Origin: Escherichia coli
Lineage (GTDB): Bacteria > Pseudomonadota > Gammaproteobacteria > Enterobacterales > Enterobacteriaceae
Reading direction: 5' to 3' (one strand)
Assembly: GCF_016026235.1 (NCBI RefSeq)
Contig: NZ_CP065613.1
Length of the DNA stretch: 64,000 bases
Both the position numbers and the translations under genes were made by a program. Shown one piece after another: positions 11,544 to 44,417 of this stretch; within the stretch, counting starts at the first letter, position 1, and every line of letters begins with the position of its first letter. Below the pieces are notes generated by a model, which worked only from the letters and a program-made list of their open reading frames with translations, had not been told where the DNA came from and did no database searches.

Positions 11544-11664
11544 ATACTTTGGCTGACATTTTTTTCCCTTAAATTCATCTGACTTACGCATAGTGATAAA
11601 CCTCTTTTTCGCAAAATCGTCATGGATTTACTAAAACATGCATATTCGATCACAAAATGTCATA

Positions 11665-11676
11665 GTTAACGTTAAC
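11665..11676. promoter_or_regulatory. Putative CscR (LacI-family) operator, palindrome GTTAACGTTAAC (copy 1)
   Basis: Perfect 12-bp palindrome centred on CG in the cscA-cscK divergent control region. Confidence 0.5.
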
Positions 11677-11727
11677 ATTTGTGATATTCATCGCATTATG
11701 AAAGTAAGGGACTTTATTTTTATAAAA

Positions 11728-11739
11728 GTTAACGTTAAC
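11728..11739. promoter_or_regulatory. Putative CscR operator, palindrome GTTAACGTTAAC (copy 2)
   Basis: Second identical palindrome 63 bp from the first, 35 bp upstream of the cscA ATG. Confidence 0.5.
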
Positions 11740-11773
11740 AATTCACCAAATTTGCTTAACCAGGATGATTAAA

Positions 11774-13207
11774 ATGACGCAATCTCGATTGCATGCGGCG
11801 CAAAACGCACTAGCAAAACTTCATGAGCACCGGGGTAACACTTTCTATCCCCATTTTCACCTCGCGCCTCCTGCCGGGTGGATGAACGATCCAAACGGCC
11901 TGATCTGGTTTAACGATCGTTATCACGCGTTTTATCAGCATCACCCGATGAGCGAACACTGGGGGCCAATGCACTGGGGACATGCCACCAGCGACGATAT
12001 GATCCACTGGCAGCATGAGCCTATTGCGCTAGCGCCAGGAGACGATAATGACAAAGATGGGTGTTTTTCAGGTAGTGCTGTCGATGACAATGGTGTCCTC
12101 TCACTTATCTACACCGGACACGTCTGGCTCGATGGTGCAGGTAATGACGATGCAATTCGCGAAGTACAATGTCTGGCTACCAGTCGGGATGGTATTCATT
12201 TCGAGAAACAGGGTGTGATCCTCACTCCACCAGAAGGAATCATGCACTTCCGCGATCCTAAAGTGTGGCGTGAAGCCGACACATGGTGGATGGTAGTCGG
12301 GGCGAAAGACCCAGGCAACACGGGGCAGATCCTGCTTTATCGCGGCAGTTCATTACGTGAATGGACTTTCGATCGCGTACTGGCCCACGCTGATGCGGGT
12401 GAAAGCTATATGTGGGAATGTCCGGACTTTTTCAGCCTTGGCGATCAGCATTATCTGATGTTTTCCCCGCAGGGAATGAATGCCGAGGGATACAGTTACC
12501 GAAATCGCTTTCAAAGTGGCGTAATACCCGGAATGTGGTCGCCAGGACGACTTTTTGCACAATCCGGGCATTTTACTGAACTTGATAACGGGCATGACTT
12601 TTATGCACCACAAAGCTTTGTAGCGAAGGATGGTCGGCGTATTGTTATCGGCTGGATGGATATGTGGGAATCGCCAATGCCCTCAAAACGTGAAGGCTGG
12701 GCAGGCTGCATGACGCTGGCGCGCGAGCTATCAGAGAGCAATGGCAAACTCCTACAACGCCCGGTACACGAAGCTGAGTCGTTACGCCAGCAGCATCAAT
12801 CTATCTCTCCCCGCACAATCAGCAATAAATATGTTTTGCAGGAAAACGCGCAAGCAGTTGAGATTCAGTTGCAGTGGGCGCTGAAGAACAGTGATGCCGA
12901 ACATTACGGATTACAGCTCGGCACTGGAATGCGGCTGTATATTGATAACCAATCTGAGCGACTTGTTTTGTGGCGGTATTACCCACACGAGAATTTAGAC
13001 GGCTACCGTAGTATTCCCCTCCCGCAGCGTGACACGCTCGCCCTAAGGATATTTATCGATACATCATCCGTGGAAGTATTTATTAACGACGGGGAAGCGG
13101 TGATGAGTAGTCGAATCTATCCGCAGCCAGAAGAACGGGAACTGTCGCTTTATGCCTCCCACGGAGTGGCTGTGCTGCAACATGGAGCACTCTGGCAACT
13201 GGGTTAG
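11774..13207 (+). CDS. cscA: CscA sucrose-6-phosphate hydrolase / invertase (GH32)
   Basis: ORF MTQSRLHAAQNALAKLHEHRGNTFYPHFHLAPPAGWMNDPNGLIWF... with the GH32 WMNDPNG motif. Confidence 0.95.
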   Translation: MTQSRLHAAQNALAKLHEHRGNTFYPHFHLAPPAGWMNDPNGLIWFNDRYHAFYQHHPMSEHWGPMHWGHATSDDMIHWQHEPIALAPGDDNDKDGCFSGSAVDDNGVLSLIYTGHVWLDGAGNDDAIREVQCLATSRDGIHFEKQGVILTPPEGIMHFRDPKVWREADTWWMVVGAKDPGNTGQILLYRGSSLREWTFDRVLAHADAGESYMWECPDFFSLGDQHYLMFSPQGMNAEGYSYRNRFQSGVIPGMWSPGRLFAQSGHFTELDNGHDFYAPQSFVAKDGRRIVIGWMDMWESPMPSKREGWAGCMTLARELSESNGKLLQRPVHEAESLRQQHQSISPRTISNKYVLQENAQAVEIQLQWALKNSDAEHYGLQLGTGMRLYIDNQSERLVLWRYYPHENLDGYRSIPLPQRDTLALRIFIDTSSVEVFINDGEAVMSSRIYPQPEERELSLYASHGVAVLQHGALWQLG

Positions 13208-13214
13208 CATAATA

Positions 13215-14210
13215 TCAGGTGGAACAACGGATCAACAGCGGGCAAGGGATCCGCGTCACACTTCCCCCTTCACGACCTTCAATAATATGCAATGCAGCTT
13301 CCCGCCCGATAATGTCATGTGGAAGCTGAATTGTGGTCAGCGGCGGTAAAAACAGATGCCCGACACCAACCAGATTATCAAAGCCCATTACGGCGACATC
13401 CTGCGGGATACGTACCCCCTTCGCCAGGAGAACCTGATAAGCCACAAAGGCTGCGCGATCGTTACCACATATCAGAACATCAAAATCTGGTTTGCCCGAT
13501 TTGAAGTGGTCATTGAGTAAACTTGCGAGATCGGTGTAGTGATCATCACCTGTTGCCATGTGAAATTGTTTCACCTCAGCCAGATCTCGTCCAGCATCAC
13601 GCCAGGCCTGCTCAAATCCCTGCCGACGATACCCCGTTGCCAACGCACTTTCCGGTAGCCAGAAGCATAACGGTTGACGATAGCCCGCCGCGAGCAAATG
13701 CTGTGTTGATTCATATTGTGCAGTGTAATCATCAGGGATATAACTGGGTAACGCTGGGTCATCCGCCACACAGTTAGCCAATACAATATTTTCACCATAC
13801 AGAGACTCAGGTAGCGTGATATGTCGCAGCCCCATTGTAGTATAGATAATGCCATCCGGACGGTGGGCAAGCAGCTGACGTGCCGCGCGGGCAGCGTCAT
13901 CTTCAGAAAAAATATTGATTAAAAAACTATTCCAGCCGAACTCGCTGGCGGTTTGCTCAATGGCAAGCAGAATATCAACAGAGAAAGGAGTGGTAGCCGT
14001 GTCCTGCGCCAGCACGGCGAGAGTCGACGGCTTACGTCCTTGAGCGCGCATCTTACGGGCGGAAAGATCAGGAACATAATTCAGGGTCTGGATTGCCTGC
14101 AATACGCGGTCACGCGTTGCAGGACGCACAGATTCTGCATTATGCATCACCCGGGAGACTGTCATCATCGACACTCCCGCCAGGCGTGCGACATCCTTTA
14201 ATGAAGCCAT
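13215..14210 (-). CDS. cscR: CscR sucrose operon repressor (LacI family), 331 aa
   Basis: ORF trimmed to MASLKDVARLAGVSMMTVSRVMHN... (N-terminal HTH of LacI type). Confidence 0.9.
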   Translation of the reverse strand: MASLKDVARLAGVSMMTVSRVMHNAESVRPATRDRVLQAIQTLNYVPDLSARKMRAQGRKPSTLAVLAQDTATTPFSVDILLAIEQTASEFGWNSFLINIFSEDDAARAARQLLAHRPDGIIYTTMGLRHITLPESLYGENIVLANCVADDPALPSYIPDDYTAQYESTQHLLAAGYRQPLCFWLPESALATGYRRQGFEQAWRDAGRDLAEVKQFHMATGDDHYTDLASLLNDHFKSGKPDFDVLICGNDRAAFVAYQVLLAKGVRIPQDVAVMGFDNLVGVGHLFLPPLTTIQLPHDIIGREAALHIIEGREGGSVTRIPCPLLIRCST

Positions 14211-14440: not shown

Positions 14441-14659
14441 GTGCTGCCGCTGTATCCCGACATCAGCCCGGAAATTATTGCGATTGCTATCGGTTCAGGT
14501 GCAATTGGCTGCACGATCGTTACGGACTCGCTTTTCTGGCTGGTGAAACAATATTGCGGCGCTACGCTCAATGAAACATTTAAATACTATACGACAGCGA
14601 CATTTATCGCTTCAGTCGTCGCTCTGGCGGGCACATTCCTGCTGTCATTTATCATCTAA
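14441..14659 (+). pseudogene. dsdX: dsdX remnant: only the C-terminal ~72 codons of the D-serine permease (GntP family)
   Basis: Frame opens right after a stop and reads ...[71 protein letters not shown], immediately upstream of dsdA. Confidence 0.8.
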
Positions 14660-14676
14660 GCGCAAAGAGACGTACT

Positions 14677-16005
14677 ATGGAAAACGCTAAAATGAACTCG
14701 CTCATCGCCCAGTATCCGTTGGTAAAGGATCTGGTTGCTCTTAAAGAAACCACCTGGTTTAATCCTGGCACGACCTCATTGGCTGAAGGTTTACCTTATG
14801 TTGGCCTGACCGAACAGGATGTTCAGGACGCCCATGCGCGCTTATCCCGTTTTGCACCCTATCTGGCAAAAGCATTTCCTGAAACTGCTGCCACTGGGGG
14901 GATTATTGAATCAGAACTGGTTGCCATTCCGGCTATACAAAAACGGCTGGAAAAGGAATATCAACAACCGATCAGCGGGCAACTGTTACTGAAAAAAGAT
15001 AGCCATTTGCCCATTTCCGGCTCCATAAAAGCACGCGGCGGGATTTATGAAGTCCTGGCACACGCAGAAAAACTGGCTCTGGAAGCGGGGTTGCTGACGC
15101 TTGATGATGACTACAGCAAACTGCTGTCTCCGGAGTTTAAACAGTTCTTTAGCCAATACAGCATTGCTGTGGGCTCAACCGGAAATCTGGGGTTATCAAT
15201 CGGCATTATGAGCGCCCGCATTGGCTTTAAGGTGACAGTGCATATGTCTGCTGATGCCCGGGCATGGAAAAAAGCGAAACTGCGCAGCCATGGCGTTACG
15301 GTCGTGGAATATGAGCAAGATTATGGTGTTGCCGTCGAGGAAGGACGTAAAGCAGCGCACTCTGACCCGAACTGTTTCTTTATTGATGACGAAAATTCCC
15401 GCACGTTGTTCCTTGGGTATTCCGTCGCTGGCCAGCGTCTTAAAGCGCAATTTGCCCAGCAAGGCCGTATCGTCGATGCTGATAACCCTCTGTTTGTCTA
15501 TCTGCCGTGTGGTGTTGGCGGTGGTCCTGGTGGCGTCGCATTCGGGCTTAAACTGGCGTTTGGCGATCATGTTCACTGCTTTTTTGCCGAACCAACGCAC
15601 TCCCCTTGTATGTTGTTAGGCGTCCATACAGGATTACACGATCAGATTTCTGTTCAGGATATTGGTATCGACAACCTTACCGCAGCGGATGGCCTTGCAG
15701 TTGGTCGCGCATCAGGCTTTGTCGGGCGGGCAATGGAGCGTCTGCTGGATGGCTTCTATACCCTTAGCGATCAAACCATGTATGACATGCTTGGCTGGCT
15801 GGCGCAGGAAGAAGGTATTCGTCTTGAACCTTCGGCACTGGCGGGTATGACCGGACCTCAGCGCGTGTGTGCATCAGTAAGTTACCAACAGATGCACGGT
15901 TTCAGCGCAGAACAACTGCGTAATACCACTCATCTGGTGTGGGCGACGGGAGGTGGAATGGTGCCGGAAGAAGAGATGAATCAATATCTGGCAAAAGGCC
16001 GTTAA
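14677..16005 (+). CDS. dsdA: DsdA D-serine dehydratase (PLP-dependent)
   Basis: 442-aa [47 protein letters not shown]... Confidence 0.95.
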
Positions 16006-39984: not shown

Positions 39985-41022
39985 TCATCTGAAATCCGTC
40001 AGTTGAACAACCGTCTCACGCGTAAGACGTTGAATAAGGGCAGATAAAAGTTGCTCCATCTGCAAAATGTCGCGGCAATCGGCAATCGACGCGGCGCAAT
40101 GTCCGTGGCGGGTGGCAGGCCCCATCACCACTGTGGGTACGCCAGTACCGGTTAAGTGCACCGCTCCACCGTCCGTGCCGCCGTTACTGAACATATCTGC
40201 CTGCAACGGCACGCCAATTTCTGCCGCCACGGTTTCGATCCAGGCGGTGAGTTTTGGCGGCGCAATCAGTGACTTGTCGCTTAACACCAGCATCGGGCCG
40301 TTACCAATCTGGCGATGGTTAGCCGCGCCATAATCAAAGTTTTTCGCCCAGCAGGCGGTATCAAGGACAATGGCGACGTCCGGCGACACCGCGCGGGTGG
40401 CAGTTTGCCCGCCGCGTAATCCCACCTCTTCGCTGGAACTTGCCACCAGCCACACTTCCGCAGGCAGTTCGACGTCGTGCAGCTCACGTAGTAACGTCAC
40501 CAGCAGATAGCAACCGAGGCGGTCATCAAAGGCTTTCCCCATCACTCGCTGGTGGGGGAGAACCTGAAAAGTGGTATCGAACGTGACGCGATCGCCTGGA
40601 CGAATTCCCGCCTGCATCACTTCGTCATACGAGCGCGCGCCAATATCCACGCGCATGGCGCTGACATCATTCCCCTGCCGGTCGCCGTCAAGCAGGCCTG
40701 GAATTTTGCACTCTTCACGGGTGGTGATGCGCACCGGCTGCAGCTGGCGGGCAGCCATGCGTACATTGCCAACCGGCAGCACATCAATCGCCCCTTCGCG
40801 GGAGATACTGCGCACCATAAATCCAACTTCGTCCATATGCGCACAGATCATCACTTTCGGACCTGTCGATTCATTGAGGCGGATCAGCACCGATCCCAGC
40901 CCATCAAATCGCACTTCTTTTTGCAGGCGATCCGCTTCTTCCAGCAGGATCTGCCGCACTTCCTGTTCCGAGGAGGCGATCGCATCTGCCTCGCTCAACG
41001 CTTTTAATAGCGATAAATCCAT
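39985..41022 (-). CDS. ypdE: YpdE aminopeptidase (M42 family)
   Basis: 345-aa [52 protein letters not shown]... Confidence 0.9.
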
Positions 41023-42107
41023 TATGCCTCTCCCGTGAGCAACACTGTTTTCGGCATGGCGTAGAGCACTTCTGCGCCTTGCGGGGTGACCAGCACAACA
41101 TCCTCGATGCGCACGCCCCCTTGCCCTGGCAAATAAATCCCCGGCTCCACGGTCAGTAACATGCCTGGCTGTAGCGTCGTGGTATCCCGCGGTGAAAAGC
41201 GCGGATCTTCGTGTACTTCAATGCCAATAGCATGACCGGTGTTGTGACCAAAATAGTCGCCAAATCCTGCCTCGGTAATCACCCGACGCGCGGCTTCGTC
41301 AACCTGCTGGCAGCGCACACCGGGGCGAATTGCAGAGATTGCTGCGAGCTGTGCCTGCAAAACAATCTGATAGACGTTAAACAGCGGATGAGATTCGGCG
41401 CTCACCCCTTCGCCATTCACCAGCAAGGTGCGCGTCATATCAGAGCAGTAGCCCTGATACAGCGCACCGAAATCGAGAGTGACAAACTCGCCCGCTGCAA
41501 CAATCTTGTCGCTGGCTTTGCCGTGCGGCAGCGCCCCACGCCAGCCACTGGCAACAATGGTGTCAAAAGAGGTTTTTTCTGCGCCCTGCTGGCGCATAAA
41601 CCACTCCAGTTCAGCGGCTATCTCGCGCTCGCTCATCCCCGCCTGAATAAAGCGGCGAATATGCTCTGCACCGCGATCGGCAATCCCACAGGCAAGGCGG
41701 ATTTTCTCCACCTCCTCTGGCGTTTTGATTTGCCGCAGCACATCCGGCGTGGCGCTAACCAGTTTCGCATTGAGTTCAGACTGCCAGCGGTGCGCGGTTT
41801 CCCAACTCACCTGCTGGCCTTCAAAACCGAGCGTTTGCAACTGTTCATCGGCAATGATTTCATTGACGATGGTTGCAAGCGTGTGTGTCGCGTCAAGCAA
41901 ATGCAGCTGGTAACCTTGCGTACGAGCTTCTACATCCGCGTAATAGCGCGAGTCCACCAGAATGTGCGCACTTTCACGGCTAATCAGCACATAGCCTGAT
42001 CCGGTGGAGATCCCCAGATGCGGCTGTTTGTTCTGCCGTGAGGAGAGAAGCACTGCATCCAGTTGTTGCGCCTTAAGCCAGTCGCGCAGCGAAGCGAGTA
42101 ATGTCAT
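41022..42107 (-). CDS. ypdF: YpdF Xaa-Pro aminopeptidase (M24 family)
   Basis: 361-aa [59 protein letters not shown]... Confidence 0.9.
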
Positions 42108-42121
42108 CTGGATTTTCCTTC

Positions 42122-43121
42122 TTACAGGCTATCGATTAACAATTTGCCTTTGCGGAACATCATCAGACGCAGGAACACCACCATCAGCGCAGTTATGACT
42201 GCCCCCAGCGCGATCCCCGCCATATAGACGCCCAGGTTAGTGACCAGCGGCCATGCCCAGATAGCGGATTCCGGGAACCATTGCACTGCGCCCAGCCAGA
42301 CAGCGGCGGTTGAGCCGACAATCGCGCCGACCATATACGACGGAATGGCGGTGATGGGGCTTTCCAGCGCAAACGGAATCGCACCCTCACTAATCCCCAT
42401 AAAGGCAAGGAACATCGCGGTCTTACCCTGCGGATAAAGCTGAGCATTGAACAGGCGTTTGCCGGTTAAACGACGGTCGATAATGGTCGCCAGACCCAGA
42501 CCAATCGGCGGAATAACGATAGCGATAGAACGTGCGGTGACCGGTAATACGTGGTCAGTGGTAAAGCTGAAGGCAACAAAACCTGCGGCTTTGTTGATCG
42601 GGCCACCAAGGTCGATTGCTGTCGCCGCGGCGATCCCCATTGCGTACATCAGCGCGCCCTTCTCACCTGCAGCAGTCAGTACGGTACGGATACCGCCGTT
42701 GATCCAGCCGCCAAACGGGGTGATGACGTAGTACATCGCCAGCATGACAAAAATGGCGGAAAGAATCGGTAGCAAAAATGTGGTTTTGAACGCTAACAGG
42801 AAATCCGGTAACTGGATTTTCTGGTTCATCCATTTCACAAGGTAACCGGCAACGATAGAAATAATCAGCGCACCAATGAAGGTGGACGGCACCGGCGAAG
42901 AGGTCGCCCATTGCATAGTGCTGGGATCGAAGTTCAGCAGTTGCGTCGGCTGGGTAGACATCAAGCCGCCGATAAAACCAGCCGGGAACGCCAGTTTGCC
43001 ACCGATAGAGTTCGCCACAAAAGCAGCAAACATCGGAATGGCAAAACCAAACAACACGCCGCCGAAGGACTGCGACAGCCAGGCAAATTTCAGTAAGGAG
43101 AGGTCGAAACCGGAGAATTTC
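42122..43121 (-). pseudogene. fryC: fryC C-terminal portion (PTS EIIC, fructose-like), separated from its 5' end by an IS186-like insertion
   Basis: Frame reads (K)FSGFDLSLLKFAWLSQSFGGVLFGFAIPMFAAFVANSIGGKLAFPAGFIG... to the stop at 42122; no start codon on this side of the IS. Confidence 0.85.
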
Positions 43122-44417
43122 CCTGAGGGATCCCCAGAAAATTTAGTAAACCATTATCATATTGGTATACCGTTGCTGTAGAACTTTCAGCCCTGCGTCA
43201 AGTGACAGTGTGTTTAGTATGAGTGGAGAATGTCGAATCACATTCTCCGCCAGTTTTAATAACGAGATGACTCGCCTGTGCTTCACTGTATTTGCCTGAT
43301 ATTTATGATGTATCCCTTTGTTTTCCAGGCTGAAACCGCTTAACCACATAATGATACTGGCTAATGTTGCGATCAGACTCAATACCGTGACCCGCCCGGA
43401 TGAATGACTGGCACCAAACCGTAGTCCAAATCCCCAGCGAGGATTTTTTTCATCCCTGAAATTTTGCTCAATTTGCATTCTACGGCTGTATAATTTCATT
43501 ACCTGTTTTGGCGAGAACTCAGTACTGTTTGTGAAAATAAACCATGGTGATTTCCCGGCAGTACGAGCTTTAGCCGTCACCGATGGTCTGGTTGCTCTTT
43601 CCTTCGAGCGTTTAAATCAACGACCTTTAGGCTTACTTTTATAAAGATAAAAATGCCCTTCATGTTGTGCATTTTTATCTCGACCCAGCAGGCCTTCACC
43701 TAAATAAATTGCTGTCGTTGATGCTTTTGTGCCTGAGTCCGACACCTTTTCCCAGCCATTACCAACATTGTAATAATGATTGCCCAGTACCCGGCAAATA
43801 TAGGTCCAGCCACGGGAGCGGAGCTGTTGGAACCATCGCCCCTGAAAACCGGCATCTGTAATAACAATGACATCAGTCCCGGGGGAAAAGCACTCAGCAA
43901 GCGATTCCAGAAAACGCTCATGTACATCTGCATTCGCTGTCTGTGATGATGGAACGACACAACTCATCAACGGTAAAGAACGCCCGTCACATGCCAGGCT
44001 TGCCCGCAAAAGCTGAAAACGAGAGGCATGATAAGCACTCCAGTCAATGAGTATCACAACACGAGACATTCCCCGCGTAATCTTTTGGGTAATTCGCTGA
44101 AAAATGGTGGAAACCTCATTTTGCAAATGTCGATTCCCCAACAGTCGATCCACCCGCTTTATTTTGTTTTTAACTGATGCCGTACCGGTTAAATGACGCC
44201 CGATACTGGTAAGTGTGAGGGAAGCGCCATTTATTACAGCATTAGTTGCGTCAATCAGTGATTTTTGACGGTAAAGATGCAAAGGGGCCAGTATGTTGTT
44301 AAGGAAATTTTGGCATAATGAACGTGCAGGCATAGTGGTGATCTCCTTGAAATTGTTAGCACAATCAATTAGATCACATCTCACTATGCCTGTCTTGTTT
44401 TCTGGGGATTCCTCAGG
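43122..44417 (-). mobile_element. IS186-like insertion sequence (IS4 family), about 1.3 kb, copy 1, inside fryC; about 11-bp target duplication GGAAATTCTCC
   Basis: Ends CCTGAGG(A/G)ATCCCCAGAAAA inverted; same element as at 51053-52348; flanking fryC codons KFS are duplicated on both sides. Confidence 0.85.
43143..44333 (-). CDS. IS186-like transposase; frame contains an in-frame TGA (revcomp of 43617-43619) between N-terminal ~238 codons and C-terminal 145 codons
   Basis: MPARSLCQNFLNNILAPLHLYRQKS...IKRVDRLLGNRHL...LYKSKPKGR*...YSRRMQIEQNFRDEK (Y-x2-R-x3-E-x6-K); reminds me of the IS10 transposase. Confidence 0.75.

Follow-up and report, generated by a model that had tools for sequence, protein, structure and literature searches.

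Two identical palindromes lie between cscK and cscA in the Escherichia coli DNA analysed here, a stretch of 64,000 nucleotides that we refer to as the window. With high probability, they are operators of the repressor CscR and belong to a fixed, CRP-dependent promoter module that is now cut off from cscK-cscB. The assignment of the palindromes to CscR has been published before, so that our result is a rediscovery and not a discovery. A publication of 2002 already described the operators together with the CRP site and the repressor, and they were taken up again in 2024. What the window holds is an ordinary known regulatory element, the cscK-cscB side of which is cut off by an IS4 insertion.

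Palindromes in the cscK-cscA control region

The genes of the locus are arranged in the order cscB (minus strand), cscK (minus strand), IS4, control region, cscA (plus strand), and cscR (minus strand). The sucrose permease gene cscB (7888–9135, minus strand) encodes an intact protein of 415 amino acids (NCBIfam oligosaccharide MFS transporter, E = 2e-176) and is 100% identical to its counterpart in the uninterrupted csc locus of E. coli FDAARGOS_943 (L001). The cscA gene (11774–13207, plus strand) codes for an intact sucrose hydrolase/invertase of 477 amino acids (NCBIfam scrB_fam, E = 1.3e-143). Its start, which is preceded by the Shine-Dalgarno sequence AGGA at 11762–11765, agrees with the RefSeq annotations. 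The convergent cscR gene (13215–14210, minus strand) encodes an intact LacI-family repressor of 331 amino acids with the Pfam domains LacI HTH and Peripla_BP_1, and the match to the sugar-binding domain ends at residue 329 of 331. CscR is 100% identical to the FDAARGOS_943 protein, RefSeq WP_001301925.1, and the same accession is found in ATCC 8739. A full-length match to CscR was also obtained for PDB entry 6ndi, chain A, a protein of 334 amino acids labelled "Transcriptional regulator" (E = 1e-113), which makes this entry a close structural model for a CscR-type repressor. Just past cscR, a dsdX remnant is followed by an intact dsdA gene (14441–16005), in a region near argW that is known as a hot spot of csc/dsd replacement. 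In EHEC, deletions at the csc/dsd region place dsdA under the cscA promoter, and CscR was judged not to act directly on dsdA (PMC7486766).

The control region comprises the 214 bp between the start codons of cscK and cscA (11560–11773). An exact-match scan of the window detected exactly two copies of GTTAACGTTAAC, the cscA-distal O1 at 11665–11676 and the cscA-proximal O2 at 11728–11739, which are 63 bp apart from start to start and from centre to centre. The coordinates and limits given for this pair in the initial annotation were thus all correct. Both copies share the 14-mer AGTTAACGTTAACA, and the extended repeat (11664–11680 versus 11727–11743) is identical at 16 of 17 bases. Given the base composition of the window, 0.0043 exact copies are expected per 64 kb, and the chance of finding two of them within 214 bp is approximately 1e-10. 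With up to two mismatches allowed, the motif gave 8 matches in the window versus 2.1 expected, a number reached by none of 100 shuffled sequences. No third exact copy was found in the window, including the upstream regions of unrelated sugar genes, and no site with two or fewer mismatches was found upstream of cscR or dsdA.

Both O1 and O2 are even-length palindromes of the form GTTAAC|GTTAAC with a CG centre, and this type of symmetry is characteristic of LacI-family sites, over 75% of which are located 30–140 bp upstream of a start codon (PMC4052901). O2 lies 35–46 nt and O1 98–109 nt upstream of the cscA ATG, and O1 lies 106–117 nt upstream of the cscK ATG. Perfect symmetry in the window extends over 12 bp, compared with a usual length of 16–22 nt for sites of this family. 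The cross-species consensus extends the palindrome to 18 bp, AATGTTAACGTTAACATT, to which the window flanks of O1 and O2 (ATA..ATT and AAA..AAT) match in part; O1 in its extended form covers approximately 11662–11679. In an alignment of E. coli and Citrobacter control regions, O1 forms an invariant block and O2 is likewise conserved, and both palindromes are unchanged in all nine Escherichia and Citrobacter sequences aligned.

In PMC11251922, Jahreis et al. (2002) are credited with two 12-bp inverted repeats between cscA and cscK, which they considered putative CscR operators, and with an up-mutation that falls in one of the two. The same article describes the repeats as flanking the −35/−10 region of cscA, with the downstream repeat overlapping the start site and a cAMP-CRP site adjoining the −35 region. 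Conservation of the control region is shown there across five species. According to PMC3938415, an operator mutation allows growth on low sucrose, and the csc promoter is bidirectional with two cAMP-CRP sites. A cyaA::Tn5 mutant was unable to use sucrose, both transcription units responded to cAMP, and strain W admits sucrose at a low level through TreB (PMC3938415). In EHEC, loss of cscR raised the expression of cscA 58-fold, of cscK 156-fold, and of cscB 28-fold (PMC7486766), and our alignment revealed the same palindromes in the EHEC control region as in the window. PMC11382391 and PMC12465659 contained no detail on the csc promoter. In PMC3938415, PMC11251922, and PMC7486766, the evidence for the assignment of both sites to CscR is genetic and consists of operator mutations and cscR deletion. 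The CG-centred symmetry, the adjacent intact cscR gene, and the conservation of the motif beside csc genes agree with this assignment, and the proposal of the initial annotation that the palindromes serve as operators of the LacI-family protein CscR is probably right.

CRP-type sites and the cscA promoter

A TGTGA-type motif beside O1 had been taken as a sign of co-regulation by CRP. The sequence quoted for it, TTTGTGATATTCATCGCA (11678–11695), holds TGTGA-N6-TCGCA, and the proximal CRP site TGTGATATTCATCGCA (11680–11695; centre 11687.5, 17 bp from the O1 centre) matches the CRP core TGTGA-N6-TCACA at 9 of 10 positions. With two or fewer mismatches, the core occurs 34 times in the window versus 28 expected, which is not significant on its own. 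We accepted the proximal site because its position is conserved across species, and not for the core match alone. Of 59 orthologous modules (described below), 48 have a proximal site with a score of 7/10 or more. Its centre lies 17 bp from that of O1 in most modules and 18 bp in Gilliamella, and the gap of 3 nt between O1 and the site is kept in 45 of the 59. This fixed offset and the published cAMP-CRP dependence of the csc genes (PMC11251922, PMC3938415) support the proposed co-regulation.

A distal CRP-like site, TGCATATTCGATCACA, is located at 11639–11654, with its centre (11646.5) 24 bp from that of O1. It matches the core at 7 of 10 positions, one half being a strong TCACA and the other weak. 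In all of the 41 modules in which the distal site reaches at least 7/10, the distance to the O1 centre is exactly 24 bp, and in random sequence the best of 29 positions attains a score of at least 7 in 8.7% of cases. O1 is therefore placed between two CRP-type sites, 24 and 17 bp from its centre, and this geometry is kept in 41 modules. Furthermore, ATCACAAA (11649–11656) and TTTGTGAT (11678–11685) form a perfect 8-bp inverted repeat around O1.

The cscA promoter itself is less clearly delimited. Just upstream of O2, the block CTTTATTTTTATAAAA (11712–11727) is conserved in Escherichia and represents the sole conserved A/T block upstream of this operator. It would supply the −10 element of cscA, for which TATTTT (11715–11720) and TATAAA (11721–11726) on the plus strand are the candidates (11715–11726). 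C. amalonaticus retains TATTTT, not TATAAA. The −35 region of cscA is poorly conserved. A consensus sigma-70 scan of positions 11400–11900 returned a single match, versus 0.9 expected from shuffled sequences, and called neither a cscA nor a cscK promoter in this interval. This match, TTAACA-16-CATTAT (11672–11699, plus strand), overlaps with O1 as well as with the CRP site and lacks conservation in other species, and we rejected it as the cscA promoter. The cscK promoter candidates picked by eye on the minus strand were all weak, and we name none of them.

The most variable stretch of the Escherichia and Citrobacter alignment lies between the CRP site and the −10 region. It is here that the window carries a 1-bp deletion (11696–11697, TT versus canonical TTT), because of which O1 and O2 are 63 and not 64 bp apart. 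The control region of the window is 97–100% identical to that of the 2,662 RefSeq E. coli genomes that carry it. Among the best 40 matches from these 2,662 genomes, FDAARGOS_943 is the only one that is 100% identical to the region of the window; the other 39 matches are 232 bp long with one gap each, which corresponds to the 1-bp deletion. As judged from these alignments, the 63-bp spacing results from a lineage-specific 1-bp deletion, and 64 bp is the canonical value. The deletion would move CRP by 1 bp relative to the −10 region.

Conservation of the module beside CscR orthologues

Our scan for CscR, with one genome per species, yielded 80 loci, 73 of which contained orthologues with 48–96% identity. 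In the 0.97 Mb covered by these 73 loci, the palindrome with at most one mismatch was found 152 times, compared with approximately 2 expected. It was present in 72 of the 73 loci, and as a pair in 57. Wherever csc structural genes were on the fetched stretch, the palindrome always preceded the operon with cscA, in spite of differences in gene order. The order is cscR-cscA<>cscK-cscB in Escherichia, Citrobacter, and Pluralibacter and cscA<>cscB in Rosenbergiella. In Klebsiella, Enterobacter, Raoultella, and Serratia, an operon of a cscB-like gene and cscA is divergent from cscR, and in Pectobacterium, Samsonia, and Rahnella, cscR stands beside a cscA-cscB operon. Read toward cscA, the module consists of the distal CRP-like site, O1, a gap of 3 nt, TGTGA-N6-TCACA, approximately 30 variable bases, and O2. 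The spacing of the pair is 64 bp in 37 loci, 63 bp in 6, and 62 bp in 1, with outliers of 57 bp in 4 loci (Gilliamella) and 68–69 bp in 9 (Proteus). The recognition helix of CscR (VSM/LMTVSR) and its hinge (YVPDLSARK) are conserved wherever the motif is conserved. Upstream of the regulator gene of Lachnospiraceae homologues (26–28% identity), the closest matches have the sequence GTTAGCGCTAAC instead.

The csc-type regulon was present in Klebsiella, Enterobacter, Raoultella, Proteus, Providencia, Gilliamella, and others. On the basis of these sequence comparisons, a csc-type regulon with this operator appears to be far wider than the E. coli, Shigella, and Citrobacter of a recent report. Csc-like loci in which both the operator pair and the CRP geometry recur are common in Enterobacterales, Orbaceae, and Aeromonas (L029–L075). 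Their proteins are 52–57% identical to CscR and 54–57% to CscA, and their MFS transporters are 38–60% identical to CscB. Examples are K. oxytoca (L052, 5790–5865), Raoultella (L038), Serratia (L031), Yersinia (L057), and Aeromonas (L061). Many pairs in L029–L075 lie between the transporter-cscA operon and cscR, which implies autoregulation of cscR. The Providencia loci have one canonical palindrome only. In these loci (L013–L018 and L065; e.g., L013, 8498–8736), TAACGC-N2-GCGTTA is conserved near the expected O2 position and may be either a variant of the site or a target of a different regulator. In Orbaceae, including Gilliamella, a second set of two palindromes is found between the cscB-like gene and cscR (L034, 5707–5732; L048, 5739–5770; L035, L041, L044, L066, and L073, approximately 5820–5850). 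Their spacing of 14–20 bp is far tighter than that of the 57–64-bp pair.

The pair could be divided between the two transcription units, with O1 serving cscK-cscB only and O2 serving cscA only, in which case O1 would have become a relic after the IS4 insertion. O1 is the operator nearer to cscK, and both operons are derepressed without CscR (PMC7486766), as such a division would have it. We nevertheless consider it doubtful, because the series O1-CRP-promoter-O2 points to the cscA-containing operon in every gene order examined, and O1 abuts the CRP site on the cscA side with the 3-nt gap that most modules share (45 of 59). In Rahnella, moreover, both operators are kept 64 bp apart together with the distal CRP site, while nothing is transcribed divergently, and PMC11251922 places both sites around the cscA promoter.

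A spacing of 63–64 bp corresponds to approximately six helical turns and is the commonest one (43 of 57 pairs), as would suit two sites on the same face of the helix that are joined by a CscR-mediated loop in the style of LacI or GalR. Such looping is improbable in our view. Orthologous modules also have out-of-phase spacings of 57 bp (5.4 turns) and 68–69 bp (6.5 turns), and CscR ends two residues after its domain match (329/331), which leaves no room for a C-terminal tetramerization helix of the LacI type. The CRP site and the core promoter between the operators account fully for the distance. We therefore rejected helical phasing or looping as the cause of the 63-bp spacing, given that orthologues use 57, 62–64, and 68–69 bp. 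That the palindromes have nothing to do with CscR, being chance tandem HpaI-type hexamers (the 12-mer can also be read as GTTAAC twice, and simple duplication of this 6-bp palindrome could give the symmetry) or sites for Cra/FruR or CytR, can practically be dismissed in view of the chance probability given above, the association of the motif with CscR orthologues in many genera, even where the locus is rearranged, the lack of further copies in the window, unrelated sugar genes included, and the published operator mutations that derepress csc (PMC3938415, PMC11251922).

The reading that we favour, in which both palindromes are CscR operators of one module, would work as follows. The elements succeed each other in the order distal CRP-like site (11646.5), O1 (11670.5), CRP site (11687.5), −35 region, −10 region (approximately 11715–11726), and O2 (11733.5), and the cscA start codon follows 34 nt past O2. 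Without inducer, CscR dimers would occupy both O1 and O2. CscR at O2, on or just past the cscA transcription start, would block RNA polymerase, and CscR at O1, abutting the CRP site, could hinder CRP in activating cscA and the divergent cscK-cscB promoter. On sucrose without glucose, CscR would dissociate, and cAMP-CRP would activate transcription. With the first base of O2 as the transcription start, the centre of the CRP site would be at −41.5 in the 64-bp allele, a class II geometry, and at −40.5 in the window. A start at the first bases of O2 would let the operator span about −1 to +11. The overlap of O2 with +1 and the position of CRP at −41.5 are geometric inferences, and the exact start sites and the division of labour between O1 and O2 are likewise deduced from the layout of the sequence.

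Viewed from cscK, O1 is located upstream of the distal CRP site, and simple occlusion does not explain how cscK-cscB would be repressed from there. Because it is placed between CRP sites, O1 could hinder activation in both directions, which would explain the control of cscK-cscB by CscR. CscR at O1 might even act as an anti-activator that competes or cooperates with the tandem CRP pair, which would be the logic of CytR applied to a strong operator. We put this forward tentatively and regard it as rather unlikely. It is suggested by the invariant 24/17/41-bp geometry, which is shared by at least 41 genomes at the species level, ranging from Escherichia to Aeromonas and including Rahnella. In the CytR promoters deoP2 and cdd, a LacI-family site lies between tandem CRP sites with a spacing of approximately 52–53 bp, and CytR relies on contacts with the CRP protein. 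The csc region resembles deoP2 and cdd in that its repressor site is sandwiched by two CRP-type sites. It differs from the CytR promoters in that these sites are 41 bp apart, the palindrome is perfect and strong, and a second operator lies at the predicted start site. We know of no contact between CscR and CRP.

Among described sucrose systems, the csc region of E. coli EC3132 and W (Jahreis 2002; Sabri 2013; PMC11251922) is the same element as that of the window, from which it differs by the 64-bp spacing and by a cscK-cscB side that is not severed by IS4. At the scrY promoter of pUR400 and Klebsiella, the downstream one of the two ScrR operators (O1 and O2) overlaps the start, as is predicted for csc, and a CRP site is found farther upstream (Cowan 1991; Jahreis and Lengeler 1993; both as cited in PMC11251922). 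In csc, by contrast, the CRP site is located between the operators, with a further CRP-like site on the far side of O1. ScrR also belongs to another orthologous group than CscR, has another 14-bp motif, and serves a PTS-based pathway. The fixed CRP-O1-CRP-promoter-O2 module has a footprint of dozens of genera, which is much broader than the published five-species alignment. We consider this wider footprint and the CRP-O1-CRP geometry to be modest additions to what has been described.

IS4 insertion and probable uncoupling of cscK-cscB

To the left, the control region is bordered by IS4 (10118–11543, transposase on the plus strand), as the initial annotation had noted. The element is 1426 bp long, is bounded by 18-bp terminal inverted repeats (TAATGCCGATCAGTTAAG / TAATGCCAGTCAGTTAAG), and encodes an IS4-family DDE transposase (E = 1.5e-90). 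It is flanked by a 12-bp target duplication, ATACTTTGGCTG, at 10106–10117 and 11544–11555. These values are those of a genuine IS4, for which a length of 1426 bp, 18-bp terminal inverted repeats, and a target duplication of 11–13 bp are expected. Comparison with the uninterrupted FDAARGOS_943 locus (L001) places the insertion after codon 5 of cscK. The orphaned 5' end of cscK (11544–11559, minus strand; ATG TCA GCC AAA GTA T..., with the ATG at 11559–11557) holds the right copy of the target duplication and is still joined to the control region. The body of cscK (9207–10121, minus strand) has an intact frame and has lost its promoter and ribosome-binding site. The fusion to IS4 replaces ATG TCA by ATT ACA at the start, so that CscK is altered at residues 1 and 2 only. 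Since cscB is located downstream of cscK, it is also disconnected from the control region.

The right end of IS4 contains a terminator-like hairpin (11514–11539, minus strand) with an 11-bp G+C-rich stem followed by UCUUUUUC. Its predicted fold has −26.6 kcal/mol (z = −4.3), and none of 200 shuffled sequences was as stable. A leftward transcript would enter IS4 antisense to the transposase and meet this hairpin approximately 20 nt past the old cscK start. It is thus predicted that leftward transcription terminates inside the element. At the far (left) end of IS4, no outward sigma-70-like promoter was found on the minus strand. From the separation by IS4, the terminator-like hairpin, and the lack of an outward promoter, it is a reasonable inference that cscK-cscB are uncoupled and that the operators now govern cscA only. 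The remaining cscA probably stays repressed, because the inducer would hardly enter the cell without the CscB permease.

The same IS4 site with the 12-bp duplication (10106–11555 in the window; 2727–4176 in L002) is found in six RefSeq E. coli genomes (789, ST865, ST866, CE0021a, JNEC-KY173, and RMDEC465). Their IS4 copies and flanks are each approximately 1% diverged from the window, the best being 98.9% identical. FDAARGOS_943, in contrast, is without IS4, yet its flanks are identical to those of the window except for a 3-bp indel in cscA. The junction shared by the former and the IS4-free state of the latter suggest that IS4 either inserted repeatedly at a hot spot or was excised precisely. 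The target lies in the context AAAA-CCC-[ATACTTTGGCTG]-ACA-TTTTTTT. A preference for AAA-N20-TTT targets has been reported for IS4, and the context in the window fits it. In strain 789, PGAP calls a full-length "aminoimidazole riboside kinase" at the IS4-cscK junction, which masks the disruption. Elsewhere in the window, parts of positions 40000–60000 match dozens of places per genome as well as many plasmids, and the best RefSeq E. coli match to this interval has 87% coverage and 98.7% identity, which suggests that it holds several IS copies.

Shigella csc loci have intact cscA and cscR genes and an IS1, IS3, or IS4 element in cscK or cscB (PMC11251922). The locus in the window is alike, with cscA and cscR intact and cscK interrupted by IS4, and the phenotype that we would expect from it is deduced from the sequence. 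With the IS4 element in cscK and the 1-bp deletion in the promoter, it represents a decayed csc locus of the kind reported for Shigella. Such decay helps to explain sucrose-negative phenotypes despite intact cscA and cscR genes.
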